From the NCBI GenBank assembly GCA_964534545.1, contig CAZHQS010000001.1:1-51029 (forward strand): 51,029 nucleotides of DNA, given 5' to 3'. Source of the stretch: Candidatus Hydrothermarchaeota archaeon. Its GTDB lineage: Archaea > Hydrothermarchaeota > Hydrothermarchaeia > Hydrothermarchaeales > JAADFM01. Positions 6,019 through 50,789 of this stretch are shown piece after piece. Below the pieces are notes generated by a model. That model was not told the origin of the DNA and searched no databases. It saw only the letters and a program-made list of their open reading frames with translations. Positions within the stretch are counted from its first letter, which is position 1. Each line of letters starts with the position of its first letter. The translations under genes and the position numbers were made by a program.

Positions 6019-6078
6019 TATTTTATAGTATAAGGGCCCATTTTTACATGTGTGGACTCTGATTTCAGAGGGGATGGA

Positions 6079-8454
6079 ATGAGATACAATCTGCGGAAGG
6101 CAAGCCCATACGTTTTTTTGGTGCTGGCCATTCTTACAGTCGACATGGCATGGGCAGGCCACAACGAAGGTGGGAAGGGCACGGTCCTCACCGCCCAGTG
6201 GACCGATGAGCCCATCACCGTGGACGGCCTTGATTCCGAGGAGGCATGGGACCGGGCGAGGGCCATTATCATCCCTGTTGTGGATGGCAAGGTGGGGGAC
6301 GTGGACGTGGAGATGCGGGCCCTCTATGACTCCGAGTACATCTACTTCTTCGTCCAGTGGCCGGACCCCACCAGGAGCGATACCATCCTCTGGAACCGTT
6401 CCGGGGACCGGTGGTATCCCCCCGCCAAGACCACCGAAGACATCTTCTCCATCTTCTGGAACATCAACGAATCGGTCCAGGGCTACAACATCGCCGGCTG
6501 TTCCATTACCTGCCACGCCGACCGGATGCGCACCAACGAGCCCGGGGAGCTCCTGGACTACTGGAAGTGGAAGGCCGAGAAGGGCAACCCATCGGGCTAC
6601 ATGTGGGACGGCTATCTGGACCACACCCTGGTGGAGGAGGAGGAGTACATCACCACCCCCACGGGCCACAAGGTCCTCAAGACCTGGCACGCTCACAAGA
6701 TGGACGAGACCTCCCCTGGGTATGTGAAGGAGCAGGAGAATGCCCTCCTGGACGATGCCGGGAACTACCTGGGGCCCAGGTATTACATTGCCGAGGGGGA
6801 TACCAGCCATATAACGGCCTCTGATATAGGGGACAAGGCGGTGGAGGTGAAGTACGTCCATGGCACGCCTGTGGAGGTTCCGGCCGGGCTGGATGTCCCC
6901 TTCTACATCTCGGAAAGGCCCCCGGGAAGCGCCGGCGACATCGATGCCAGGGGGACCTACTCGGAGGGGATGTGGAACCTGGAGATCAAAAGGGCCCTCA
7001 GGACAGGCCATCCCGATGACGTCCAGTTTGATACCACGGCCCTCTACTGGTTCAGCATTGCGGTCAACGACGATTCCCACGGCGCTGCCAACGAGGGCAG
7101 GGGGAAGGGCCATTCCATCAGCCTCCTGGCCAAGGCCCTGGAGTTCGGGGGTCTGGGCTCGGAGGAAGTGGCGCACCTGAGCCTCTTAAGGGACTACCTC
7201 ACCACCGCCAGGGTATATGCGGCCCGGGGGGACTGGGGTCTGGCCACCTCCGAGATCAACTACGCCCTGGCCCTGCTGGGAGACGTCAGGAACGAGGTGG
7301 CAGCGGCGGACCCGCAACTCTACATCCATATAAAGGACCATTTCACCCTGGCCAAGAGGGCACCAACCCTGGAAAACATCGACGCCCTCATGGATGAGGT
7401 GGACCTGATGATCCTGACCCTCCAGGGTAAGAGGACCCCCCCCAGGCCGACCCTGACCCAGGCCCTCCTTGTGGCATGGGGCAAGGTCCAGCTTTATTTC
7501 TTCATCTTCCTGGCGGTCCTTGCCCTTTATCCCCTCTACAGGACGGTACAGACCGGCCGGAGGCCGGTCTTCAGGAAGATGAGCCTCTTCCTCTTCCTGG
7601 TCATTGTCCCAGTATTCCTGGAGGGCCTGGGCAGGCTTGGGACGGTGCTGGGGATCCCCTTCCTCTACCGGTTCAGCTTCATGACCTCGGAGGGTGCCAC
7701 CCTCCTCTGGGCCTTCCTGATGTTTTTGGCCCTCCTCATGGCAAGGGCTGGCTTCGCCGAGGTTGACAGGAACATCCAGATCCTGGAGGGCCACAGGGCC
7801 GAGCTGAGGAAGAGGGTCATGGAACGAACCAGGGAACTGGAAGAGACCAAGAATTTCCTGGAGAGCGTCTTCAACGGCATAGGGGAGGGGGTCATCGTCC
7901 TGGACCAGGACTACAAGATCATATCCGCTAACAAGATGTATCTCAAGATGGTAAACCGTTCCGAGGATGAGGTCCTGGGACAGCACTGCTACCAGATCTC
8001 CCACCTCCGGGACACCCAGTGCGGTGAAGCAGATCACCACTGCCCGGTAAAGGAGACCATCTCCACAGGGGAACCCTCCCGGGCCGTCCACACCCATTAT
8101 GACAGGGAAGGCAACGAGTACTATGTGGAGGTGAGCTCCTATCCCCTTCTGGACTCCGAAGGAAAGCTCAAATACATCATCGAGAGTGTCATTGATATCA
8201 CCGAGAAGAGGAAGCTGGAGCAGGAGAAGCTTGAGGCAAAGGATGAGACCATCCGTCAGATGAAGCGCCACGAGAAATACGTCTTCGATGTGGCCGACCG
8301 GCTCCGCAACCCCCTCCAGATCTTCATGGGCCACCTGGAGGACTTCGACACCTCAAACTTCGACCAGGAGCAGAAACGGAGGTTCCAGGTGATCCTGGAG
8401 GCCAGCAGGCTGGTGGAGGAGAATATCAAGAAACTCACGGAAAGGGACAGGTGA
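6079..8454 (+). CDS. transmembrane sensor protein: EB_dh/DOMON-like extracytoplasmic domain, 3 TM, Cys-rich PAS, degenerate DHp, no ATPase domain
   Basis: ATG 6079 starts a signal anchor (MRYNLRKASPYVFLVLAILTV). Outer-domain motifs: ITVDGLDSEEAWDRA, MRALYDSEYIYFFVQWPD, WNLEIKRAL. TM helices at about aa 470-570. PAS with GQHCYQISHLRDTQCGEADHHCP. The H-box-like FDVADRLRNPL has Asp where the His belongs, and the ORF ends about 50 aa later. Confidence 0.75.
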   Translation: MRYNLRKASPYVFLVLAILTVDMAWAGHNEGGKGTVLTAQWTDEPITVDGLDSEEAWDRARAIIIPVVDGKVGDVDVEMRALYDSEYIYFFVQWPDPTRSDTILWNRSGDRWYPPAKTTEDIFSIFWNINESVQGYNIAGCSITCHADRMRTNEPGELLDYWKWKAEKGNPSGYMWDGYLDHTLVEEEEYITTPTGHKVLKTWHAHKMDETSPGYVKEQENALLDDAGNYLGPRYYIAEGDTSHITASDIGDKAVEVKYVHGTPVEVPAGLDVPFYISERPPGSAGDIDARGTYSEGMWNLEIKRALRTGHPDDVQFDTTALYWFSIAVNDDSHGAANEGRGKGHSISLLAKALEFGGLGSEEVAHLSLLRDYLTTARVYAARGDWGLATSEINYALALLGDVRNEVAAADPQLYIHIKDHFTLAKRAPTLENIDALMDEVDLMILTLQGKRTPPRPTLTQALLVAWGKVQLYFFIFLAVLALYPLYRTVQTGRRPVFRKMSLFLFLVIVPVFLEGLGRLGTVLGIPFLYRFSFMTSEGATLLWAFLMFLALLMARAGFAEVDRNIQILEGHRAELRKRVMERTRELEETKNFLESVFNGIGEGVIVLDQDYKIISANKMYLKMVNRSEDEVLGQHCYQISHLRDTQCGEADHHCPVKETISTGEPSRAVHTHYDREGNEYYVEVSSYPLLDSEGKLKYIIESVIDITEKRKLEQEKLEAKDETIRQMKRHEKYVFDVADRLRNPLQIFMGHLEDFDTSNFDQEQKRRFQVILEASRLVEENIKKLTERDR

Positions 8455-8497
8455 CCGCATCAGAGAGGGTTTATATTGCACCAGGACAGTAGGTAAT

Positions 8498-9466
8498 ATG
8501 GATAAAAGAAGGTCCTATGCCATCGGCACCCTGGGTATCTTGCTGAACCTGCTCTACTGGGGCTTTGAGGCAGGGGAGTACGGGCTGGGGGGCCTTGTGG
8601 AGGACTTTTACAGGGCACCCACAGAGCATGTGGTCATCCTCGCCCAGATCCCCCTTTTTCTCCTGGTGGGGCGGGTCTTCTACCTCATGGAGAGGCGGGC
8701 CGAGGAGGTGAACAGGGTCAATGAGAGGCTCCAAAGGGAGATAGACCAGCGCAAGAAGGCCGAGGAGGCCATCAAAAACTATGCCCGAAAGCTGGAGGAG
8801 GTCAATACCATCAAGGATCTCTTCACGGATATCATGCGCCACGACCTGCTGAACCCGGCAGGGTCCATCAAGGTACTGACCGACCTTCTCCTTGATGGCG
8901 AGGAGGACCCTGAAAAGAGGGAGGTACTGGAGAAGATCCAGAAGAACTCCTCAAAGCTCATCGAGATGGTCGAGACCGCCTCCCTCTACTCGAAGCTGGA
9001 GGACGCAGAGACCCTGGCGCGCAGCCGCAGCGATCTCAACACCATCCTGAAAGACTGCCTCAAGGGTCTTGAAACCCAGCTTGAAAAGGCAGGGATGGAG
9101 GTCCTTTATTCCCTGGAGGGGGAGTATCCCGTCCAGGTGAACCCCATCATCGAGAACGTGTTCTCGAACTTCATCACCAACGCCATCAAGTACGCCTCCA
9201 CAGGGAAGAAGATTGAAATCGGTGTCAGGGATGGTGGGGACACGTGGCAGGTCTATGTCAAGGACTACGGAGAGGGCATCGCGGACCTGGACAAGGAGAA
9301 GCTCTTCACCAGGTTCCAGCGCCTGGGAAAGGAGGGGGTCAAGGGGACGGGCCTGGGCCTGACCATTGCCAAACGGGTGGTGGAGCTCCACGGCGGGCGC
9401 ATCTGGGTGGAAGACAATCCCGAGGGTGGGAGCATCTTCTATGTAGAGCTGCCGAAGGCCTCATAG
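8498..9466 (+). CDS. sensor histidine kinase (2 TM, HisKA, HATPase_c)
   Basis: 322 aa. H-box FTDIMRHDLLNPAGSI, N-box NFITNAIKY, G-boxes DYGEGI and GTGLGLTIAKRVVELHGGRIWVEDNPEGGSIFYVELP. Confidence 0.9.
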   Translation: MDKRRSYAIGTLGILLNLLYWGFEAGEYGLGGLVEDFYRAPTEHVVILAQIPLFLLVGRVFYLMERRAEEVNRVNERLQREIDQRKKAEEAIKNYARKLEEVNTIKDLFTDIMRHDLLNPAGSIKVLTDLLLDGEEDPEKREVLEKIQKNSSKLIEMVETASLYSKLEDAETLARSRSDLNTILKDCLKGLETQLEKAGMEVLYSLEGEYPVQVNPIIENVFSNFITNAIKYASTGKKIEIGVRDGGDTWQVYVKDYGEGIADLDKEKLFTRFQRLGKEGVKGTGLGLTIAKRVVELHGGRIWVEDNPEGGSIFYVELPKAS

Positions 9467-9571
9467 CGGTATTGGAGCGAAGAGGAAATACCGCAATCTG
9501 ATGATGCAACTTTCCCGGGGTAATATTCTTATACCGGGCGGGCCTAACAACACATAAGGTGGTGCCACATC

Positions 9572-10663
9572 TTGGATGCCTCTAGAAAGGAACAGTTTCT
9601 GTCCCAGATCGTGGAGAATACCGGTGATGCCATAATAGGCTTTGATCACCAGGGCAATATTAACTTCTGGAACAAGGGGGCCCAGGAGCTCTTCGGCTAC
9701 CGTAGGCTTGAAATCGAGGGACGGCCCTTCAAGATCCTTGTCCCCGAGGACCTGGAGGGGGAGTTTGATGAGATCTTTGAACGATTGAAGGACGGGGAGG
9801 TGATAAAGGGTATGGAAACAGAGCGGGTGGCCAAGGACGGATCCAGGTTATATGTCTCCACCACCTTGAGCCCCATCCTGGACGGGTGGAGGATCATCGG
9901 CTACTCGGCCATCATCAGGGATATCTCGGAGACAAGGGAGCTGAGGGCAATGTTGGCCAAGGCCCGGCAGCTCCAGCAGACCCTCTTCCTGACCGACAAG
10001 CTGGCGAGCCTCTCGGCCCTGGCAAAGGGGATCGCCCACGAGGTGAACAACCCCCTTACAGCCATAATGACCTATACCCAGCTCCTCCTGGAGGACCTTG
10101 GGAAGGTGGAGAAGGACCCTCAGAGGATGGAGAGGAGCCTTAGGAAGATAGAGGAGGATGTGAAGAGGTGCAAGAGCACCCTCAGGCTCTTCCTTGATAC
10201 CGCCGAGACCCCCGACGACATCACCAATATATCCCTGGTGGACCTCATGAAGAAGGTCCTGGCCTTCCAGGAGCAGAGGCTGGTGAACCAGGGGATCCAG
10301 GTGGAGGAGGAGGTGACGGACGTGAAGATCGAGGGAAGCGAGATCCGCCTCTTCCTGGTCTTCAACGGTATCCTTTCCAATGCCATCGAGGCCATGCCGG
10401 AGGGGGGGAGCCTCCGGTACACCATCAAGGAGGAGGACGAAAGGGCCATCATCACCATCAGGGACACCGGGAAGGGCATCCCTCCTGAGGACATCAACAG
10501 GATCTTTGACCCTTTCTTCACCACCAAGGAACTGGGCCAGGGATCCGGGGTGAGCCTGTACTTCTGCTACGATACTATTAAAAGGATGGGAGGTAATATA
10601 ATGGTTGAAAGCAAGGTTGGAGAAGGTTCCACCTTTATCATCCAACTGCCCAGGAAGGGTTGA
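9572..10663 (+). CDS. cytoplasmic PAS-domain sensor histidine kinase
   Basis: 363 aa. PAS (IVENTGDAIIGFD..WNKGAQELFGY), H-box GIAHEVNNPLTAI, and ATPase motifs DTGKGIPPEDINRIFDPFFTTK and GSGVSL. TTG start, so the start is uncertain. Confidence 0.9.
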   Translation: MDASRKEQFLSQIVENTGDAIIGFDHQGNINFWNKGAQELFGYRRLEIEGRPFKILVPEDLEGEFDEIFERLKDGEVIKGMETERVAKDGSRLYVSTTLSPILDGWRIIGYSAIIRDISETRELRAMLAKARQLQQTLFLTDKLASLSALAKGIAHEVNNPLTAIMTYTQLLLEDLGKVEKDPQRMERSLRKIEEDVKRCKSTLRLFLDTAETPDDITNISLVDLMKKVLAFQEQRLVNQGIQVEEEVTDVKIEGSEIRLFLVFNGILSNAIEAMPEGGSLRYTIKEEDERAIITIRDTGKGIPPEDINRIFDPFFTTKELGQGSGVSLYFCYDTIKRMGGNIMVESKVGEGSTFIIQLPRKG

Positions 10664-10666
10664 GGT

Positions 10667-11680
10667 ATGGAGAAGCCATCGATACTGGTTGTGGACGACG
10701 AGGAGTCCATAAGACTCAGCCTCTCCATTCTGCTCAAGAAGGAAGGGTTTCATGTAGAGGAGGCCGCCAGTGGGGAGGAGGCCCTGGAGAAACTGCGGAC
10801 CAACAGGTATGACATCGTCATCAGCGATATCATGATGCCCGAGCTGGATGGCATCACCCTGCTGAAGAAGATCAAGGAGCTGGACCGCAAGATCGATGTG
10901 ATCCTGATCACGGCCTATGCCAACCTGGACCGGGCTATCCAGAGCCTGAGACACGGGGCATCGGATTTCATCCAGAAGCCCTATGAGAACCAGGATATCA
11001 TCAGGGCCGTGTCCAAGATCATGGAGGACAGAAAACTCGAGGCCGCCTTTGAGACAGAGAAGACGTTGCCCTTCGCCTTCAATGCATCACAGAAGGAGCT
11101 GCTCCTGAGGCTCTTCAACGACGGTGTCAAGGACCTGGAGATATCCCTGAAGGAGATTGCGGGAGATATCAAACTCGAGGTCGAGGACCTGACGGTGGAG
11201 GACCTGAAGAACTTCCCGGCCCACGTGGGGGGCGAGGGTGTGCCCATGATGGGGGCCTATGTGGGTATCTACGGGGACCTCTCGGGGAGTTTCATGATGG
11301 TCTTCCAGGTGGAGGACTGCATATCCCTGGTGGAGTTCGTCATCGGGGAGAAGGTGGGGACCATCGATTTCAACCTCCCCACGGAGAGGGGGTCCAAGAC
11401 GGTGATGGAACTGGGGGACATCCTGGCCAACTCCTATCTCCTGGGCCTGAGGGAGTCCACGGAGATGATACTGAAGTCCACACCCCCAACCTTCGTTCAC
11501 TTCACGTCAGGCAACATCAGGTCCTTCATGGAGGTGCGCACCGGGAAGGGGACCCATTACAGCATCCTCACCCCCCTGAGGGTGTCCTTTGTGACCGACA
11601 CGGCCCGGACCCTGGTGGGCTACCTGATCTCCATCTTCGGACTCCGGAGCATGCGGTTGCTCTCCGAGAAGATTGTATGA
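10667..11680 (+). CDS. response regulator: receiver domain fused to a CheC/CheX-like C-terminal domain
   Basis: REC motifs VVDDEES, DIVISDIMMPELDG and ILITAY..K. The C-terminal 200 aa carry VMELGDILANSYLLGL..STPP, which resembles but does not exactly match the CheC ExxN..P motif. Confidence 0.7.
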   Translation: MEKPSILVVDDEESIRLSLSILLKKEGFHVEEAASGEEALEKLRTNRYDIVISDIMMPELDGITLLKKIKELDRKIDVILITAYANLDRAIQSLRHGASDFIQKPYENQDIIRAVSKIMEDRKLEAAFETEKTLPFAFNASQKELLLRLFNDGVKDLEISLKEIAGDIKLEVEDLTVEDLKNFPAHVGGEGVPMMGAYVGIYGDLSGSFMMVFQVEDCISLVEFVIGEKVGTIDFNLPTERGSKTVMELGDILANSYLLGLRESTEMILKSTPPTFVHFTSGNIRSFMEVRTGKGTHYSILTPLRVSFVTDTARTLVGYLISIFGLRSMRLLSEKIV

Positions 11681-11755: not shown

Positions 11756-13018
11756 ATGGGCAAGAGGACCTCCATCTTCTGCATGGCCGCTGCCAATGTG
11801 TACTTCGTCCTTGCTCTCTTCCTGGGGCTTTTGATGATCCTGGGGGTGGTCGGGTCCGGGGAATTCAAGACTGCCCACGCCCACCTGGCCCTCCTGGGCT
11901 GGGTCTCTCTGACCATCATAGGGGCCATGTACGAGCAGGTCCCCAACCTCACCGCCGCCGACCTCTACAGCAAAAAGACAGCCTGGTGGTCCTTCTGGGT
12001 CTACAACCTGGGCCTGGTGGGTCTGGCAGGGGGACTGGCCTTTGAGGTCCCCGATATCCTCCTGGCGACCTCCGCGGCCCTCCTCCTCCTGGGCGTATAT
12101 GCCTTTGCCGGCAATATCTTCATGACCGTAAAAAACCGCCGGGCCCCCAACCCCATCCTGAAGTTCTATACAGCCTCGGTGGTCTATTTCGTCCTGGCCT
12201 CCACCTTCGGCGGTGCCCTGGTGCTGAACCGCATGGGGGTAATCGACCTCACCACCGTTTTTGTCAGGTACACAACCGCCCACGCCCACCTGGGATTTTT
12301 GGGCTGGGCCTCCCTCATCATCATCGGGGCCCTCTCCTGGATGTTCCCCATGGTGGTCATGAGGGACATCCACAGCCAGAAGCTCATGGATGCCGTCTTC
12401 TGGCTATTCAACCTGGGGGCCATGGGTTTCGCCCTGGGCCTTTTGACCGGGGGGCTTGGCACCCTCTCCCTGGCCTCCGCCCTGGTGGTGTTCCTGTCCA
12501 TAGCCCTTTTTTCCTACAACCTCCTCATGACGGCCCTGAAAAAACAGGTGAAGATGCAGATGACGGCCGATGCCACCGAGGCCCCCTTCTTCTATGGTGC
12601 GGTTTTCTATTTCTTCCTGGTGGCCCTCCTGGGCCTTGCCATGCTCCTTGGGCCGGAGACCGTAAAGTCCGTCTCCCCCGCCCACGGCCACCTGGCCCTC
12701 CTGGGCTTTGTCTCCCTGACCATCTTCGGGGGCATGTACCACCTCATACCCATGCTCACCTGGACCCTCATAACCAAGAAGATGGCGGCCGCCGGACCCC
12801 AGGGGTCCCCCCCATCCCTGCCCAAGTCCCTCCACGAGCTCTACAGCGTCAAACTGGCCAAGGTGGTCTTCTGGGGCTTCAACCTGGGTACCCTGGCCCT
12901 CGGGGCAGGCATGTACCTGGGCCAGCAGACCCTGGCTGCGGCCGCCGGCCTGGTCCTTTTTGCCTCGGGGACCCTCTTTAGTCTGGACATGTTCAGATGC
13001 ATCAAAAGGGGGCTATAG
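11756..13018 (+). CDS. 12-TM membrane protein with three internal 4-TM repeats, each with an HxH..LGW motif (heme-copper-oxidase helix-X-like)
   Basis: 420 aa. TAHAHLALLGWVSLTIIGAMYEQVP (H41/H43), TAHAHLGFLGWASLIIIGALSWMFP (H176/H178), PAHGHLALLGFVSLTIFGGMYHLIP (H310/H312). FW-x-F/Y-NLG also repeats three times. Confidence 0.8.
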   Translation: MGKRTSIFCMAAANVYFVLALFLGLLMILGVVGSGEFKTAHAHLALLGWVSLTIIGAMYEQVPNLTAADLYSKKTAWWSFWVYNLGLVGLAGGLAFEVPDILLATSAALLLLGVYAFAGNIFMTVKNRRAPNPILKFYTASVVYFVLASTFGGALVLNRMGVIDLTTVFVRYTTAHAHLGFLGWASLIIIGALSWMFPMVVMRDIHSQKLMDAVFWLFNLGAMGFALGLLTGGLGTLSLASALVVFLSIALFSYNLLMTALKKQVKMQMTADATEAPFFYGAVFYFFLVALLGLAMLLGPETVKSVSPAHGHLALLGFVSLTIFGGMYHLIPMLTWTLITKKMAAAGPQGSPPSLPKSLHELYSVKLAKVVFWGFNLGTLALGAGMYLGQQTLAAAAGLVLFASGTLFSLDMFRCIKRGL

Positions 13019-13082: not shown

Positions 13083-13334
13083 ATGCTGGAATGCCCTGGC
13101 TCCAAGATCATCAAGTCCCCGACCATAGAGTTCATAAAGTGCCCCTATTGCCAGTCCGAGGTGGAGATATTCTCGGACGAGACCACCGCCCTCTGCGACC
13201 GGTGCGGCAAGGAGGTCACCCGGGCCGCCGCCCTGGCCTGCATAGAGTGGTGCCAGTCGGCCAGGGAGTGCGTCGGGGAGGAGAAGTACCAGGAGCTCAT
13301 GAAGGCCAAGGAGGCAGATCAAAATGGTGGATGA
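13083..13334 (+). CDS. small Cys-rich zinc-ribbon protein (8 Cys)
   Basis: 83 aa. CPYC..x14..CDRC ribbon, then ACIEWCQSARECVG. No family recognised. Confidence 0.6.
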   Translation: MLECPGSKIIKSPTIEFIKCPYCQSEVEIFSDETTALCDRCGKEVTRAAALACIEWCQSARECVGEEKYQELMKAKEADQNGG

Positions 13335-13602
13335 AGAGAAGGTAATCGAGGCCCTGAAGGGTGTCATGGACCCCCATACGGGCCAGGATGTCTATGAGAT
13401 GGGTCTTATACGGAACCTGAAGATCGAGGGAAGCACGGTGAGCCTCGAGTTCGTCCCCTCCAGCCCCTACTGCCCCCTGGGGGAGCACCTGGCCACTTCC
13501 ATCAAGAAGGCCGTCCAGGATACGGAGGGCGTTGAAAGGGTCGATATTACAGTGGAGGGCTATGTCCAGAAGGACGCCCTTAACCAGATATTGAAGGGAT
13601 AG
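13324..13602 (+). CDS. DUF59/MIP18-family Fe-S cluster assembly protein (SufT/PaaD-like)
   Basis: 92 aa. VIEALKGVMDPHTGQDVYEMGLIRNLKIEG..V.LEFVPSSPYCPLGEHL is the classic DUF59 pattern. It overlaps the previous ORF by 11 nt. Confidence 0.85.
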   Translation: MVDEEKVIEALKGVMDPHTGQDVYEMGLIRNLKIEGSTVSLEFVPSSPYCPLGEHLATSIKKAVQDTEGVERVDITVEGYVQKDALNQILKG

Positions 13603-13615
13603 GAGGTTTAAGGGA

Positions 13616-13735
13616 ATGGCAGAATGTTTCAACTGCAAACGGTCTGAAGACGAAGAGAAGCTCCTCCAGTTCAGGCACAAGGGGGAGGACAACTTTGTAT
13701 GTGTCAAGTGCCTGCCCATGCTGATCCACGGGTGA
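13616..13735 (+). CDS. 39-aa CxxC..CxxC mini zinc-ribbon ORF
   Basis: MAECFNCKRSEDEEKLLQFRHKGEDNFVCVKCLPMLIHG. AGGAGG lies 9 nt upstream. Below the track length cutoff. Confidence 0.45.
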   Translation: MAECFNCKRSEDEEKLLQFRHKGEDNFVCVKCLPMLIHG

Positions 13736-45377: not shown

Positions 45378-47213
45378 TCAGGAGACTTCCCATTCCCCAG
45401 TGACCTTTAAGATGTCTGTTCCGTTAGCTTTGAGTTCCCAGGTGCCGGAAGCGGGGTCGGTGATGGTCATGGCCTTGTAGCCTGAATAGATGCCGTCGGT
45501 GTTCCCTGAGTTCCTGATGATGGTGGCGGTCTGGTTCTCATGAATCATGACGCCCTCGGGGTTGACCAGTCCCATGACAACCCTCGCAGAAGGAGTCGTG
45601 CCGTACCAGTAAACCGCTGCGGTAAGTTTTGAGACCCCACTGGAAACATTGAAGCTTGAAGAGTATTCCCAGACTTCTTCAGGACCGATGGTTGCCTCAG
45701 GTTCCAAAGAAGCGTATTTGCGGACCCTGACATAGTCCAGATAGTGGTATCTCGACCCGCAACTGTAAAGAGGTACTGTGGCCCAGACCCATGTGTTCAC
45801 GTTAGTGTAATCCCCAATGTTATACTCATGACTGCCAAGCATCGCCCCGTTATCATCGAATATTATTCCCTCAAAGGATGTTGAATTCTTTTTTATCAGA
45901 GTGCTTCTGTACCAGCTACCCATCGATAGCTGGGCCAGATTCTCTCTTCCGCTTGTACCTGAGGTGGTCACATATTCCATGTCCCAGTAGGTGTTGTAGA
46001 AGCCTCTACCCCTTACCCCGATTCTGTTGTCAGAGGTTCCATCACACCAGGTGATTCCATTCTCGAAGAGGACGTTCTGCCACCAGATTACACCGGTACC
46101 CCAGCTACTTCCAGTGAATTTAAACCGCGTTTCTATAACTGGTTGGTCGGTTTCACTGAAGCTACCTTTCATTCGCAGGCATCTGTGGTCGGAACAGTAG
46201 CCGCCACAACCGCCGCCAGGGAATTTTATGACCGAGTCAGAGATGGTGTAGGAAACTCCGGATAGGCCGAAACAGCCGTTTTCCCATTTATTGGAATCCA
46301 GACCTGTACCTTCAAAGTCGTCATAGAAGTCAAAGACCTCATCTGGGTTGCCAGTAGAACCTACGTTCTCATTACTGTAGTACATGTAGATGGTGGTGTT
46401 ACCCTGGGGTAGAGCAGGTATCTTCACCCAGACGCTGGCATAGCTTGCGGATGCATAATCCTCTATCCAGTAGGAGAGTTCTCCGTCCTGGGTACTGTTG
46501 ACAAACCGCAGGTCGCTAAAGTCAGGCTGCATGTCGTTGTCATAGGAGACGTTGAGGAGAATCTGGTAGTCTGTGAGAGGATCTCCGGGATTGTGAATGG
46601 TTACAGGACGTTTCCTGAGCCAGGTGGAGTCCCACCAGGGGTCCAGGAGACCATAACCCTTACTCCCCTCAGCTTCAAGCCAGAACTCACCTTTCGAGTT
46701 TATGGGGAAGGTGATGACCATTTTGAGCTGCTTTTTTTCGCCAGGGTTTATTTTTATGTTCTCAAATACCCGTTTCGCCTTGAAATGTTTGGGAACCCGT
46801 TTGGATGCCAAAACAGTTGCTTTGGGCCTTAAAGGAACCCACTTTTCGGTGGTGACCCGTTCTTTATGGCTGCCTGTGATACAGGGATAGCTGACAGAGA
46901 CGGTAGTCCCGTTGGCAGGAATCTCACCGGTGCATGTCCCGTAGTCTTCAACTGTAATTTCTTCTTTTGTAGTCTGGAGTTCATATAGCTCTTTTACCTC
47001 AGCTCCCGAGGCCTCCGGGAACAATGAGGCAAATCTTATAAAATCCGCAGATTTCCCAGTGTTGGTGATGTTTACATACACCACAGCCTGGGTCAGACCA
47101 TAATAAACATCCTTGTCGGTCTCAATGAGGAGGGTCTCTCCTGCAGAAGCGGAGAGGATGTTCATCATCAGTAGCCCAAATATGATAACACCCACCACGA
47201 TTCTAAGCTTCAT
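45378..47213 (-). CDS. secreted DUF2341 + LamG/jelly-roll-like protein
   Basis: Signal peptide. DPWWDSTWLRKRPVTIHN..DYQILLNVSY..DLRFVN..LSYWIE..VWVKIPALP..TIYMYY is the DUF2341 pattern. DDFEG.. begins a lectin-like domain. Confidence 0.7.
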   Translation of the reverse strand: MKLRIVVGVIIFGLLMMNILSASAGETLLIETDKDVYYGLTQAVVYVNITNTGKSADFIRFASLFPEASGAEVKELYELQTTKEEITVEDYGTCTGEIPANGTTVSVSYPCITGSHKERVTTEKWVPLRPKATVLASKRVPKHFKAKRVFENIKINPGEKKQLKMVITFPINSKGEFWLEAEGSKGYGLLDPWWDSTWLRKRPVTIHNPGDPLTDYQILLNVSYDNDMQPDFSDLRFVNSTQDGELSYWIEDYASASYASVWVKIPALPQGNTTIYMYYSNENVGSTGNPDEVFDFYDDFEGTGLDSNKWENGCFGLSGVSYTISDSVIKFPGGGCGGYCSDHRCLRMKGSFSETDQPVIETRFKFTGSSWGTGVIWWQNVLFENGITWCDGTSDNRIGVRGRGFYNTYWDMEYVTTSGTSGRENLAQLSMGSWYRSTLIKKNSTSFEGIIFDDNGAMLGSHEYNIGDYTNVNTWVWATVPLYSCGSRYHYLDYVRVRKYASLEPEATIGPEEVWEYSSSFNVSSGVSKLTAAVYWYGTTPSARVVMGLVNPEGVMIHENQTATIIRNSGNTDGIYSGYKAMTITDPASGTWELKANGTDILKVTGEWEVS

Positions 47214-47216
47214 CCT

Positions 47217-50200
47217 TCATACCTCCTGTGTAACTTTAAACCATTTATAGCCCGGTACCCCTTCGGTGCCGGTAAATCTGGCCTTCAATCGCCAGTAGCC
47301 CGGCAGGGCATCCTGCGGCAGAGGATATTCAAACCGGATTATCCGGGCATCAAGGGGGTCAACCGTTACCTGGAATGCTGACTGGTTGACAACGGAACCA
47401 TCTGGAGCGATTACAGTAAGGTTTACCGTATCGGTTGCCGGGACACCGCCCCAGTTGGCAACCACAACATCAGCCATCAGGGTCTCGCCTGCATGATACT
47501 CTTCGTCGTAGAAGAACACATGCAGGGTTAAAGGTACCTCTGGCTGAACAGTAAACCAGACCATAGAAGAGTTCAGGTTGCCAAAAGTGTCGTTGGCGTA
47601 GATGACAACATTATGAGGACCGGCTGATAGACCCGCCAGGGTTATATTTCCTGTTAATGTCACGTTCGCACCGCCGTCGAGACTGTAACCTATCCAGTCA
47701 ACTCCACTCGCGTCACTTACTGAATAGTTCAAATCGATGGAGGTGGTGCCATATGTCACATTCTCCGGTGAGAATATCGATATCACCGGAGGATACAGGT
47801 CCTCCTTCTCGACTATTACAAAAGGTGAAAGCGTGTTGGTTGTTCCACTAACCTTGTTATTTGCTTTATCAATTGAAGAAGTGATGATCTCCCAATCCGA
47901 TCCGGTCCAGTGTAAAATATCAAGATTAGACTCATTATTTACCAAAGATTCTGTATAGGCGAGGGTTGTAATAACGCTACCAGAATAGCTTGCAGTTGTT
48001 GTTATGTCATGGTAATTGCTAATCTCTAGGTAATCTGAAGGTATGATCCCCCATTGATTAGTAGAACTAACCGAATCCTGGGTGTCACCACTGGCAGTTA
48101 CTGTAGCAAAATTAACCGAATTGCCAGAACCTAAATCTACACTTATATCTGAACCTGTACCAGTATTATGGGTTGTAACACAAACGTCATTTGAAAATAG
48201 GCTTTCGCCCTCACCATTAACAGCAGATACTTCATAGCAGTACTCTGTACCAGGATTTACGCTTGGATCATGATATTGGGATGTTGTTGTAGATGTGAGA
48301 TAAGTCCCACCTCTATAAATTTTATAGGTATCTACATCGTCTGACCTCTCATTATCATTCCAATTAAGATCCACGTAATTATAGCCATAATCGGGTATTG
48401 TTAAACCGGTTGGTGCATCTGGAACCGAAGGGGTGTATTTAAGTTCATCAAAATAAAAATCGGTATCCCCAGTACCCCAACGATAGGGATACCCGTAGAT
48501 ATAGATATATCTTACATTCTTCCAGTCAAAATTGACATCGTCGTCACCTGGTAAATAATCTGAAAAGCTTTTTAGACTTTCATCCTTGAGTTTCCATGAA
48601 GAAGAACCCAATCCAACTAAGGAAGTGGAAACTTTCCTCCCGTTAGAATCCTCTAAACGTAATCTTATATATGCATTTGGCCCCGTATTCATATAATAAA
48701 AACTAATTTTCCCAGAGTCGGTATCAATTGACCATGGTCTTTTTATATATAACCAATCGCTCCCATCTACTGCTTGATCACCAATTTTGAACATCCCTCC
48801 TGAACCAGAGTATCCATTAGAAGTACCATCAACCCACAAATTAATTGTATTGTCTGATTCATAATAAGTCCAATCACCCCACGAGTACCCATTGTTTGTC
48901 TGACTTACGCCTTCTTCATTTGCAAAATCATCGATAGTCCCTGGTGCCGGCGGCGGTGGCGGACAGGTGGTAGTATAGTCCATGCCATGAGCGGCAAAGG
49001 CTTGTTTTATCAAGTTACAGTTTGGAGTTCCATCTGATGGATCACTATTCCCGCCCCTTGACGGGTCGTCGTCTTCCTCTAATAGGGCATTATAATATTG
49101 GTTGGGTGTGTAGTAGCCATCTTGTAAGTAAGTGAGCGCATGCCAAATGAGGTCATCTGTGAAGGCCTGTCCCTTAACCTCTCTGATCTTCCACAAAGAG
49201 CCGGCCACCGGGAACCTGTTCCACTTATGTTTGTGATCTAGTTCATCTACCGAACCGTCCCCATTAAAATCTCTCACTACATTGGTGGCATTGGAAGATG
49301 AGATATCAACATTTCTACTTACAATTTCTCCATAGATCGGGTCATCGTTTATTGAGCATGGAAAATATGTGGGGAGGCCTTCATCCACTGCTGAATTATT
49401 AGCCCAATCCCCCCCAGTGTATATCCAATGATTCTTAGCATCATAAATAACACTGTGAGTAAATTCATGTAATATAACATCGCTGGATTTGGCATAATCG
49501 CCATAAGCCCCGCTAATAAAATACAAGTCCACACCATTATTGTGGTCTGTCCACGACTGGACATTCTCATTTGGAGGATCTAAGGGGTCCATATTCGCAT
49601 GAGCCGTTACAAAGTTGTTATAGTGTGCAAACTCGTTTACGAAATAATCATACCCCCTGTTGATATGATAATAGATGTTCGGTTGGAATCCACCATCATC
49701 GCTGTATTGATAACTATGGGTCAGGTCACCATATGTGTATGTATGGTATCTAGAAAAAGATTCAGCCGGCGCATTGACAACGCTAACGGCATCGTACCAG
49801 GCTTCAGGTGGGTCGGAAGTAAACCGATCAATTTTCAAGGAAACGCCTAGTTGAACTGGACTGGAAACTGTTTTACTGTAATATCCCGAGGAGTCTGTCC
49901 TGGTTTCAAGATTCCATGAGAACCCGTTGTTGATCCATATCCGCTGCCTTTTAAGAGGGACCGTTTTCGTATCATCTGCACTTGCAAGAATGTCATTGTA
50001 AACTGTAGCGGTTATGGTCCCGGATATATCTTCTGCGACAATGTTAGTAGATTTCTGCAATATCAGCCCATCATGAGCATCCACATAGAAAGTCTCCAAA
50101 GGGAGAGGAACGAACCAGGCGAGATGATAATTCATGGTTCTGCCAGATTTCTGGGGAAGAATTACCAGATGTGTTCGATTATAAATAGTTTGGATATCAT

Positions 50201-50789
50201 ATTGAGGAAAAGAGAAATTATAACTTGAATTTGCTATCACAACAGCTAACTCTTTGGTAACGCGAGGTTCGGTTTGGACCGAGACGTCGTATTGGTAATT
50301 GTTTCCAATTGCTCTAACAGTGCCATCTTTTTTAAAAGAGATACTAACCATTGCATTGTGGATAGGAATACCCCGAAAATGCTGCTGATAATTGACGCTG
50401 AAGGACTTTCGATCTTCTGAAATCCCCGCATATTTTAAATTCGAGAAATTAAAATTAAATAATCCGTCGTTATTTTCCTTTAAAAATGAATAGGCAAAAT
50501 TTTTTGCTCCTTTAACGTCTTTCTCCTTAATATTTTTGCCCGTTTTAAAATAGCCATGCAGAGTTCGAACGTGTCCATTGATATCCATATCCCCCCTGTA
50601 AATATCCCCGTATTTAGACTCAAACCTCTGAATAGCATTTCCTAAAACCGAGCTATTTTTTAATGATTTATGATAAATAGAATTATACCTTTCCAGTTGG
50701 GCATCGTCACTACTATCATGCGATGCAAATATGGGGGATATGCAAACTGTGAGCAAAATCATAAAAATCAGCCATATCCGTGAACTCAT
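47217..50789 (-). CDS. 1190-aa secreted multidomain zinc metalloprotease (FTP/PepSY propeptide, HExxH catalytic domain, CBM-like, FN3, Ig-like, CARDB-like)
   Basis: Signal peptide. Propeptide VNYQQHFRGIPIHNAMVSISF. VILHEFTHSV ... AVDEGLPTYF. Calcium-loop-like DFNGDGSVDELD. CPPPPPAPG linker. FN3 PDAPTGL..YKIYRGG..YCYEVSAVN. Confidence 0.75.
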   Translation of the reverse strand: MSSRIWLIFMILLTVCISPIFASHDSSDDAQLERYNSIYHKSLKNSSVLGNAIQRFESKYGDIYRGDMDINGHVRTLHGYFKTGKNIKEKDVKGAKNFAYSFLKENNDGLFNFNFSNLKYAGISEDRKSFSVNYQQHFRGIPIHNAMVSISFKKDGTVRAIGNNYQYDVSVQTEPRVTKELAVVIANSSYNFSFPQYDIQTIYNRTHLVILPQKSGRTMNYHLAWFVPLPLETFYVDAHDGLILQKSTNIVAEDISGTITATVYNDILASADDTKTVPLKRQRIWINNGFSWNLETRTDSSGYYSKTVSSPVQLGVSLKIDRFTSDPPEAWYDAVSVVNAPAESFSRYHTYTYGDLTHSYQYSDDGGFQPNIYYHINRGYDYFVNEFAHYNNFVTAHANMDPLDPPNENVQSWTDHNNGVDLYFISGAYGDYAKSSDVILHEFTHSVIYDAKNHWIYTGGDWANNSAVDEGLPTYFPCSINDDPIYGEIVSRNVDISSSNATNVVRDFNGDGSVDELDHKHKWNRFPVAGSLWKIREVKGQAFTDDLIWHALTYLQDGYYTPNQYYNALLEEDDDPSRGGNSDPSDGTPNCNLIKQAFAAHGMDYTTTCPPPPPAPGTIDDFANEEGVSQTNNGYSWGDWTYYESDNTINLWVDGTSNGYSGSGGMFKIGDQAVDGSDWLYIKRPWSIDTDSGKISFYYMNTGPNAYIRLRLEDSNGRKVSTSLVGLGSSSWKLKDESLKSFSDYLPGDDDVNFDWKNVRYIYIYGYPYRWGTGDTDFYFDELKYTPSVPDAPTGLTIPDYGYNYVDLNWNDNERSDDVDTYKIYRGGTYLTSTTTSQYHDPSVNPGTEYCYEVSAVNGEGESLFSNDVCVTTHNTGTGSDISVDLGSGNSVNFATVTASGDTQDSVSSTNQWGIIPSDYLEISNYHDITTTASYSGSVITTLAYTESLVNNESNLDILHWTGSDWEIITSSIDKANNKVSGTTNTLSPFVIVEKEDLYPPVISIFSPENVTYGTTSIDLNYSVSDASGVDWIGYSLDGGANVTLTGNITLAGLSAGPHNVVIYANDTFGNLNSSMVWFTVQPEVPLTLHVFFYDEEYHAGETLMADVVVANWGGVPATDTVNLTVIAPDGSVVNQSAFQVTVDPLDARIIRFEYPLPQDALPGYWRLKARFTGTEGVPGYKWFKVTQEV

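Follow-up and report, generated by a model that had tools for sequence, protein, structure and literature searches.

The origin of the enzymes of the haem-copper oxidase (HCO) type that reduce O2 or nitric oxide (NO) is a long-standing question in bioenergetics. The pseudo-threefold fold of HCOs suggests a triplicated four-helix ancestor, and the canonical enzymes are too diverged to show the ancestral ligand; helices II, VI and X are central in this fold, and two of the three pores adjoin each of them. Pei, Li, Kinch & Grishin (Protein Sci 2014, 23:1220) are said to have described 'HCO homology' (HCOH) proteins built of homologous four-helix 'evolutionary units', among them homologues with 12 transmembrane helices (12-TM) and no catalytic site. 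Single-unit 4-TM families reportedly resemble helices 9-12 most, the 12-TM three-unit families reportedly include NnrS, most three-unit families are said to hold two conserved His with one haem predicted, and the genomic context of HCOH proteins is reported to point to denitrification and NO detoxification. Here we analyse a protein of this kind, labelled HCOL, the 420-aa product of an open reading frame (ORF) at 11756..13018 (+) in a 51,029-nucleotide stretch (the window; contig CAZHQS010000001.1, positions 1 to 51,029) from a Candidatus Hydrothermarchaeota archaeon. We found that HCOL has an internal three-unit repeat, belongs to the HCO superfamily by sequence and fold, carries no CuB ligands, and has six His that are conserved and co-vary in pairs among relatives with a recurring gene neighbourhood. 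Our preferred explanation, which we hold with about half confidence, is that HCOL would be a copper-less, three-site (probably tri-haem b) HCO homologue in a module for NO and iron-sulfur (Fe-S) stress. Because Pei et al. 2014 had already reported three-unit HCO homologues, the general concept is known and HCOL is of that kind. It clusters with hundreds of three-unit HCO-like proteins, shares with the three-unit HCOH proteins the 12-TM architecture of three four-helix units without a catalytic metal site, and has relatives that, like them, stand beside DUF2249 and denitrification or NO-stress genes. The passages of later papers that cite Pei et al. 2014 (one: PMC11218638) agree with this description of the HCOH proteins. 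The gene and its three units are laid out as follows.

11756..13018, + strand: HCOL gene, encoding a 420-aa, 12-TM, three-unit HCO-superfamily protein (from the ORF, Pfam, an AlphaFold2 (AF2) model, Foldseek and counts of Lys and Arg (K/R))
11756..12160, + strand: HCOL unit 1, aa 1-135, helices I-IV, with FWVYNLG in helix III
12161..12562, + strand: HCOL unit 2, aa 136-269, helices V-VIII, with FWLFNLG in helix VII and no His-His copper ligands
12563..13015, + strand: HCOL unit 3, aa 270-420, helices IX-XII, with FWGFNLG in helix XI

The original prediction, made from the DNA sequence alone, was of a 12-TM protein made of three recognisable 4-TM repeats, and both the structure model and self-comparison bear this out. 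The AF2 model, computed from an alignment of HCOL and ten homologues, has 12 helices (pLDDT 90.5, pTM 0.90). When HCOL was cut at residues 135 and 269 and the thirds were compared, the units were 30-37% identical to each other over 107-143 aa by pairwise BLASTP (composition-corrected E of 1e-12 to 7e-19). Smith-Waterman scores between them were 149-187 against shuffled means of 34-36 (sd about 6), giving z = 20-23, with no shuffled score above 68. Judged from the sequence, the internal repeat is far beyond chance. The HxH pairs sit exactly where they had been placed, at aa 41/43, 176/178 and 310/312 (His codons 11876/11882, 12281/12287 and 12683/12689), and successive pairs are 135 and 134 aa apart. 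Helix II carries H41 and H43 close to its outer end, helix VI carries H176 and H178, and helix X carries H310 and H312 as well as the invariant H329. The motif FW-x-F/Y-NLG, claimed for the following helix of each unit, is present in all three (FWVYNLG at 80-86, FWLFNLG at 215-221 and FWGFNLG at 372-378). The longer signature HxH..LGW..G..Y..P, also claimed for every unit, is present with two departures, unit 2 having S-W in place of Tyr and unit 3 reading LGF rather than LGW; in unit 3, AHGHLALLGFVSLTIFGGMYHLIP spans residues 309-332. A cytoplasmic insertion of ~27 aa (338-364), between helices X and XI, is found in unit 3 only. Predicted-cytoplasmic loops hold 19 K/R residues and predicted-outer loops 2, and from this split both termini are predicted to lie inside (N-in/C-in). 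The HxH pairs are then close to the outer ends of helices II, VI and X, so that by K/R distribution the HCOL His are positioned near the outer face, like those of HCOs.

The repeat of the HxH helix can also be followed in the DNA.

11873-11953, 12278-12358 and 12680-12760, + strand: 81-nt DNA triple repeat coding for the HxH helix (nucleotide comparison)

The copies are 405 and 402 nt apart and share 70-81% nucleotide identity, which exceeds what the overall protein identity between units (30-37%) would lead one to expect; the cause could be a strong codon bias, or gene conversion that now and then acts among the repeats.

The further statement in the original prediction that HCOs show no obvious sequence repeat does not hold. 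With a single-unit hidden Markov model (HMM) built from the HCOL family, 181 of 200 relatives show three units, the cbb3-like P0024 and P0115 among them, and P0026 and P0028-P0031 show just two. P0024, P0028 and P0115 are CcoN-like and collinear, with 170-310 bits to TIGR00780, and the internal shuffle z of cbb3-like proteins is 3-14, P0115 being the most repeat-like. From the single-unit HMM and these z-scores, a weak internal repeat is detectable even in C-family-like oxidases. Compared with their weak internal similarity, HCOL, with its units about one-third identical, is exceptional in the strength of its repeat and in keeping all three ligand pairs.

A relation to HCO subunit I had been proposed from one helix, and Pfam, Foldseek and hhalign extend it to the whole fold. 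COX1 (PF00115) is the sole Pfam assignment for HCOL (98.8 bits against a gathering score of 34.8, E 4.3e-28, in four stretches), and family searches returned HCO-superfamily models exclusively. PDB sequence matches with E <0.01 are limited to CcoN, another cbb3-type oxidase chain and NorB; CcoN is matched at E 1e-7 with HCOL and 5e-12 with the family profile, and the PDB sequence search gave no solved structure closer to HCOL than CcoN or NorB. All 50 Foldseek matches listed for the HCOL model are subunit I chains of HCOs or NO reductases (NORs), the top matches being cbb3 oxidases (template modelling (TM) score of 0.80 for CcoN, normalised to the query), and query-normalised scores against subunit I of the A-, B- and C-families range over 0.72-0.81. 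With hhalign, the HCOL family aligns with seven CcoN-like proteins collinearly and at full length (probability 99.8%, E 2.6e-29, 24% identity), and three shifted registers are likewise significant (E 1e-12 to 1e-20). Since both collinear and shifted registers are significant, HCOL is a genuine member of the HCO superfamily, with homology between every one of its units and every HCO unit. Taken alone, units 1 and 2 match CcoN units and unit 3 does so only weakly, and the best match of each unit is HCO helices IX-XII. We regard these structural and homology statements as near-certain. NnrS, a protein reported with haem and copper, had also been named as a candidate relative; HCOL was rejected as a member of that family (PF05940), as no Pfam NnrS hit was found at E up to 10, and among its relatives NnrS appears in P0060 alone, below threshold (18 bits, cutoff 28).

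No transporter family appeared in the family searches with HCOL. This bears on the possibility that HCOL works without a cofactor, as a channel or transporter that passes metal ions, protons or a small molecule and is built on an HCO scaffold with His lining the three pores. HCO pores do include proton and oxygen pathways, the HxH motifs of HCOL are near one membrane face, and its neighbour genes are not classical redox partners. However, we consider such a function improbable, given that only HCO-superfamily models were recovered and that the His are paired across helices at haem-ligand positions and lost together, as described below, which fits a shared ligand better.

The closest solved relative, cbb3 CcoN (C-family; PDB 3mk7, 8smr), shares the 12-helix three-pore fold with HCOL; it also has His at the same positions of helices II, VI and X, an HxH..LGW..G..Y..P helix and, in helix 3, the FW motif. 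Source databases label relatives of HCOL 'cbb3-type cytochrome c oxidase subunit I', and CcoN is the best PDB and NCBIfam match, as would be expected if HCOL were the catalytic CcoN of a cbb3-type oxidase or a NorB-like NO reductase. Against this, the NCBIfam cbb3 CcoN model TIGR00780 gives HCOL 73.4 bits and its cutoff of 583.15 is not reached. HCOL is also shorter (420 aa versus about 474 aa), and lacks the helix VII His-His, the equivalent of Tyr251 and CcoO/CcoP. All nine His of HCOL (41, 43, 176, 178, 206, 310, 312, 329 and 360) can be placed and none is in helices III, VII or XI, so that helix-VII-type His-His metal ligands are absent in any register. In alignments, CcoN H257/H258 face HCOL G92-G93 or an insertion, CcoN Y251 aligns with HCOL L87, and no HCOL unit has a Tyr for the cross-link at the equivalent helix-3 position. 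The NorB subunit of cNOR (PDB 3o0r) belongs to the same superfamily, and HCOL unit 1 aligns with NorB helices I-III; the match is weak (E about 1e-2 to 1e-3), and unlike NorB, HCOL is without FeB ligands (His-His plus Glu) and NorC. Among the scanned window ORFs, we found no gene for subunit II, CoxB, CcoO/CcoP, NorC, a cytochrome c or CuA, adjacent or otherwise, and the HCOL contig encodes an anaerobic ribonucleotide reductase. With no CuB/FeB site, HCOL cannot reduce O2 or NO by the HCO mechanism; the absent ligands, the score and the gene context rule it out as a true cbb3 oxidase or NOR, and a catalytic CcoN or NorB is hardly credible as an explanation. The label 'cbb3-type cytochrome c oxidase subunit I' on these proteins in Hydrothermarchaeota and Archaeoglobi is a systematic mis-annotation, which could wrongly imply aerobic respiration in metabolic reconstructions of anaerobic archaea.

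We then compared the His of HCOL with the cofactor ligands of the oxidases. Following Buschmann et al. 2010, we take CcoN H60 and H347 to be the haem b ligands and H345 the haem b3 ligand, and H207, H257 and H258 to be the CuB ligands, with Y251 cross-linked to H207. In alignments to P. stutzeri CcoN (3mk7_A), HCOL H41 corresponds to H60, H43 to H207, H176 to H345 and H178 to H347, the last two in line with the likeness to CcoN helix X that had been pointed out in the original prediction. By unit alignment H312 also stands at the CcoN H347 position, and with H41 both low-spin haem His are present; in the collinear register, H310 and H178 are at the positions of the high-spin haem proximal His and of the helix VI CuB-FeB His. 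H41, H312, H310 and H178 are all invariant in alignment A1, which consists of HCOL and 10 homologues at 36-75% identity.

To describe these positions, the first His of each HxH is called 'a' and the second 'c', in units 1, 2 and 3. In canonical HCOs, II-a and X-c hold the low-spin haem and X-a the high-spin haem, in a pore where VI-c stands on the CuB side. Rotating the low-spin pair three-fold yields the pairs (1a,3c), (3a,2c) and (2a,1c), and HCOL has all three, as H41+H312, H310+H178 and H176+H43. H41+H312 would be the equivalent of the low-spin haem site of HCOs, H310+H178 that of the high-spin haem and CuB site, and H176+H43 would lie in the pore that is empty in HCOs; it is H43 and H176, additional to the His of CcoN, that complete this third symmetric site. 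In the model that we favour, the twelve helices of HCOL form the three-pore fold of HCO subunit I, of the 'three evolutionary units' homologue type, and each central helix (II, VI and X) would give one His to the pore on either side, producing three equivalent bis-His sites. With a b-type haem in each site, up to three six-coordinate haems would be clustered in a triangle close to the outer membrane face. Inferring from the sequence that haem is the ligand, we put the presence of three bis-His b haems in HCOL at about an even chance.

The distribution of His among relatives bears on this arrangement. A profile search of 1.84 billion representative proteins recovered 3098 relatives at E <=1e-3, and 112 at E <=1e-30. 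The positions were read, in the order 1a, 1c, 2a, 2c, 3a, 3c, from 192 full-length relatives after alignment with the family HMM. The main classes are.HHH.. (98 sequences),.HH... (39), HHHHHH (29), H..HHH (9) and HHH..H (7). The original prediction had named His residues not conserved in orthologues as a reason to abandon it; instead, all six are invariant in A1 and in the 29 six-His sequences, at the level of the family HMM. Every His in the five main classes keeps its predicted partner, save 2c in.HHH.., and the.HH... class contradicts both same-helix pairing and the opposite rotational pairing. In the class.HHH.. (e.g. P0012-P0051, P0076) 93 of 98 sequences have Tyr at 3a, the counterpart of H310, which points to His/Tyr ligation or to another cofactor in that pore of these relatives. 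The H..HHH class is made up of the seven CcoN-like proteins together with P0066 and P0069. These two (Chloroflexota and others; ~425 aa) have the four-His canonical HCO pattern and no adjacent His-His anywhere, and they look like putative intermediates, with two haems and no copper, on the way from the six-His form to true oxidases. In helix 3, the invariant Asn (N84/N219/N376) showed no clean co-variation with the His pair of the adjoining pore and was dropped as evidence. Reduced-His classes come from Ignavibacteriales, Chloroflexota, NC10 and Dongiaceae. The six-His form is rare, with about 18 full-length clusters at 50% identity among the 1.84 billion representatives, in keeping with the view that a bis-His helix in all three units is unusual. 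Its named sources are metagenome-assembled genomes (MAGs) of Hydrothermarchaeales/Hydrothermarchaeaceae, Ca. Hydrothermarchaeum profundi, Ca. Pyrohabitans, a MAG of Archaeoglobi, and unclassified archaea.

That several haems or metals are bound, as the original prediction had ventured, is the best reading of the geometry of the His pairs and their correlated losses. A variant of this would be the same fold with one or two sites filled, or with the His pairs binding non-haem Fe, Cu or Zn, in which case the three-fold conservation would be a constraint of folding or assembly, or reflect metal handling tied to the Fe-S partners. Neighbours with DUF59, ScdA_N and hemerythrin domains, described below, deal with iron, and the helix-2 G/S/G/Y/P signature is kept by every unit of every class irrespective of His content, from which it follows that much of the symmetry of HCOL is structural. 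On the other hand, the six-His set stays unbroken down to about 30% identity while whole pairs are readily dropped among relatives, which argues that each His pair is under its own selection, and the His are at the exact haem-ligating positions of HCOs. We consider fewer filled sites or a non-haem metal possible, with something over a quarter of our confidence.

A neighbour-joining (NJ) tree was calculated with the six His columns removed and the root placed at the CcoN-like proteins. In this tree, the reduced classes branch out of a basal grade of six-His sequences, and whole-pair losses recur independently: pair (1a,3c) is lost at the base of a large reduced clade, HHH..H arises twice, and H..HHH arises inside six-His clades. 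HCOL resembles a fused homotrimer of an HxH four-helix unit; compared with the single-unit 4-TM HCO homologues and the MAPEG/YgdD-type homotrimers, its units are fused in one polypeptide and have diverged. A tentative proposal, to which we give rather less than an even chance, is that the six-His family represents the ancestral symmetric HCO scaffold, a fused trimer of one HxH four-helix unit with three equivalent bis-His haems, each in a pore of its own. The six-His basal grade in the crude NJ tree fits this proposal. If it is true, the oxidase and NOR active site and the one- and two-site homologues arose by loss or remodelling of sites. HCOL provides an expressible model of the symmetric state, with a ligand pair in all three pores.

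HCOL is followed on the same strand by genes for three small proteins, in the order 8-Cys protein, DUF59 protein and mini-protein.

13083..13334, + strand: 8-Cys zinc-ribbon protein, 83 aa, cytoplasmic (conserved operon partner, invariant Cys)
13324..13602, + strand: DUF59 / FeS_assembly_P (SufT-like) protein, 92 aa (Pfam PF01883, E 9e-20)
13616..13735, + strand: mini-protein, 39 aa, MAECFNCKRSEDEEKLLQFRHKGEDNFVCVKCLPMLIHG (conserved beside six-His genes)

The eight invariant Cys of the 8-Cys protein are found in an N-terminal CPG, a CxxC...CxxC zinc ribbon and a C-x3-C-x5-C motif. Sequence searches with it gave zinc-ribbon noise and five close homologues only, and its AF2 model (pLDDT 79) matched only generic zinc ribbons in the PDB (E > 0.2). 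The DUF59 gene overlaps the 8-Cys gene by 11 nt; at locus L010 the two are fused in one 175-aa protein, and at L008 the 8-Cys module is fused to DUF2249 instead. The source labels for the 8-Cys/DUF59 genes, 'predicted amidophosphoribosyltransferase', 'ribosomal protein S27E' and 'ATP-binding protein involved in chromosome partitioning', look wrong. The mini-protein (MAECFNCKR...FVCVKCLPMLIHG) has the pattern CxxC-x21-CxxC with a near-invariant C-terminus, C-x-x-C-LPMLIHG, and no Pfam family was found for it.

Of 13 independent six-His loci, 10 have the mini-protein, 9 the 8-Cys protein and 9 DUF59, and the mini-protein is the most constant neighbour of six-His genes. It is found in archaea of several lineages (window, L001/L003, L004-L007, L009-L012 and L014), and at four Hydrothermarchaeota loci it lies immediately upstream of HCOL. 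The 8-Cys protein adjoins HCOL in the window, L002, L006, L008, L009, L010, L011, L012 and L014. A ScdA_N/DUF1858 protein of 60-71 aa with a CCGG motif occurs at 4 of the 13 loci and a cupin at 2. Neither the mini-protein nor the 8-Cys protein occurs at the wider-family loci L015-L019, and DUF59 and cupin are common to six-His and wider-family loci. The operon of HCOL with the 8-Cys protein, DUF59 and the 39-aa CxxC peptide is an uncharacterised module, linked to NO and Fe-S stress by context.

Gene neighbourhoods of relatives show two recurring themes, Fe-S maturation or repair and nitrogen-oxide metabolism. Among six-His loci, Ca. Hydrothermarchaeum (profundi, L001) has the order norC-norB-cupin-mini-HCOL, with a NorB that scores 392 bits to PDB 3o0r_B; Archaeoglobi (L008) has DUF59-DUF2249-DUF2249/8Cys-ScdA_N-HCOL; and upstream of the gene in Ca. 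Pyrohabitans (L005) are NapG/H-like ferredoxins, an FrhB-like protein and a PF13447 multihaem cytochrome. In the reduced classes, Ignavibacteriales have nosZLDFY-Rrf2-DUF2249-HCOL-DUF59-cupin, and the neighbours in NC10 are Crp, ferredoxin, DUF1858-DUF2249, DUF59, DUF59-ParA (Mrp-like) and DUF2249-hemerythrin. DUF2249 genes are induced in haloarchaeal denitrification (PMC11218638). As a separate observation, a multihaem cytochrome c (PF13447) of ~495 aa lies directly upstream of the mini-protein and six-His genes at both L005 (6295-7779) and L007 (194-1690). L007 is from a Hydrothermarchaeota MAG related to Ca. Pyrohabitans, and in L005 the NapG/NapH-like ferredoxins and the FrhB-like protein precede the cytochrome.

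In the favoured explanation, HCOL would be made together with its three small cytoplasmic partners, namely the 8-Cys protein, the DUF59 Fe-S maturation factor and the 39-aa CxxC peptide. It would most likely act as a haem-based redox or NO-binding membrane module in nitrosative stress and Fe-S protection in an anaerobic archaeon. This role is proposed because of the small partners and of the ScdA_N, DUF2249, cupin, hemerythrin, Rrf2, norCB and nos genes beside relatives; compared with haem as ligand and the number of three haems, the physiological role is the weakest link. A number of findings tell against the explanation. Gases bind poorly to six-coordinate bis-His haems. The three sites are all at the same membrane depth and far from the cytoplasmic partners, which makes direct electron transfer from the sites to these partners unlikely. 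Two sequences, P0062 (.HHHHH) and P0084 (...HHH), break the pair rule with an orphan His. The NJ tree is crude and without support values, and its sequences were gathered by similarity to the HCOL family; given the lack of support values and a sampling biased towards the query, its evidence is suggestive only. Finally, the window itself has no nor, nir or nos gene and DUF59 is the sole context marker there, so that the functional link to NO rests on relatives.

Directly upstream of HCOL are four genes for signalling proteins.

6052-8454, + strand: EB_dh (haem-b)-PAS sensor, 800 aa (Pfam)
8498-9466, + strand: histidine kinase (Pfam)
9572-10663, + strand: PAS-histidine kinase (Pfam)
10667-11680, + strand: response regulator (Pfam)

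Pfam finds no kinase domain in the 800-aa EB_dh-PAS protein, and the C-terminal ~210 aa of the response regulator have no family match. These genes (6052..11680) may regulate HCOL, a weak link, as the EB_dh-PAS and response regulator genes upstream of HCOL recur only in the closest relative, L009. Their position also raises the possibility that HCOL is mainly a membrane gas or redox sensor, whose signal would go either to its small partners in the cytoplasm or to the two-component system encoded upstream. This is compatible with haem binding and overlaps the explanation that we favour. HCOL is directly downstream of the EB_dh-PAS sensor, two kinases and response regulator, the closest relative being alike, and in Thermus the DUF2249/DUF1858 proteins DrpA and DrpB regulate nitrate respiration, DrpB being membrane-associated (PMC6282519). 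However, two-component genes are absent from the other 12 loci and no signalling domain is fused to HCOL, and a sensor seems to us unlikely.

We found no description of a three-unit family with six invariant His, ~one-third unit identity, and 8-Cys and mini-CxxC partners, the three-unit families of Pei et al. 2014 reportedly having two conserved His for the most part, and a PNAS 2024 survey of HCO/NOR diversity makes no mention of repeats or such homologues. Compared with most HCOH families as reported, HCOL has six invariant His, units that are much more alike, and its own 8-Cys and mini-protein partners.

Elsewhere in the window, two very large adjacent ORFs of 611 and 1190 aa (45378-50789, - strand) carry DUF2341, fn3, MG2 and FTP-propeptide domains, and their products are probably secreted or surface proteins.

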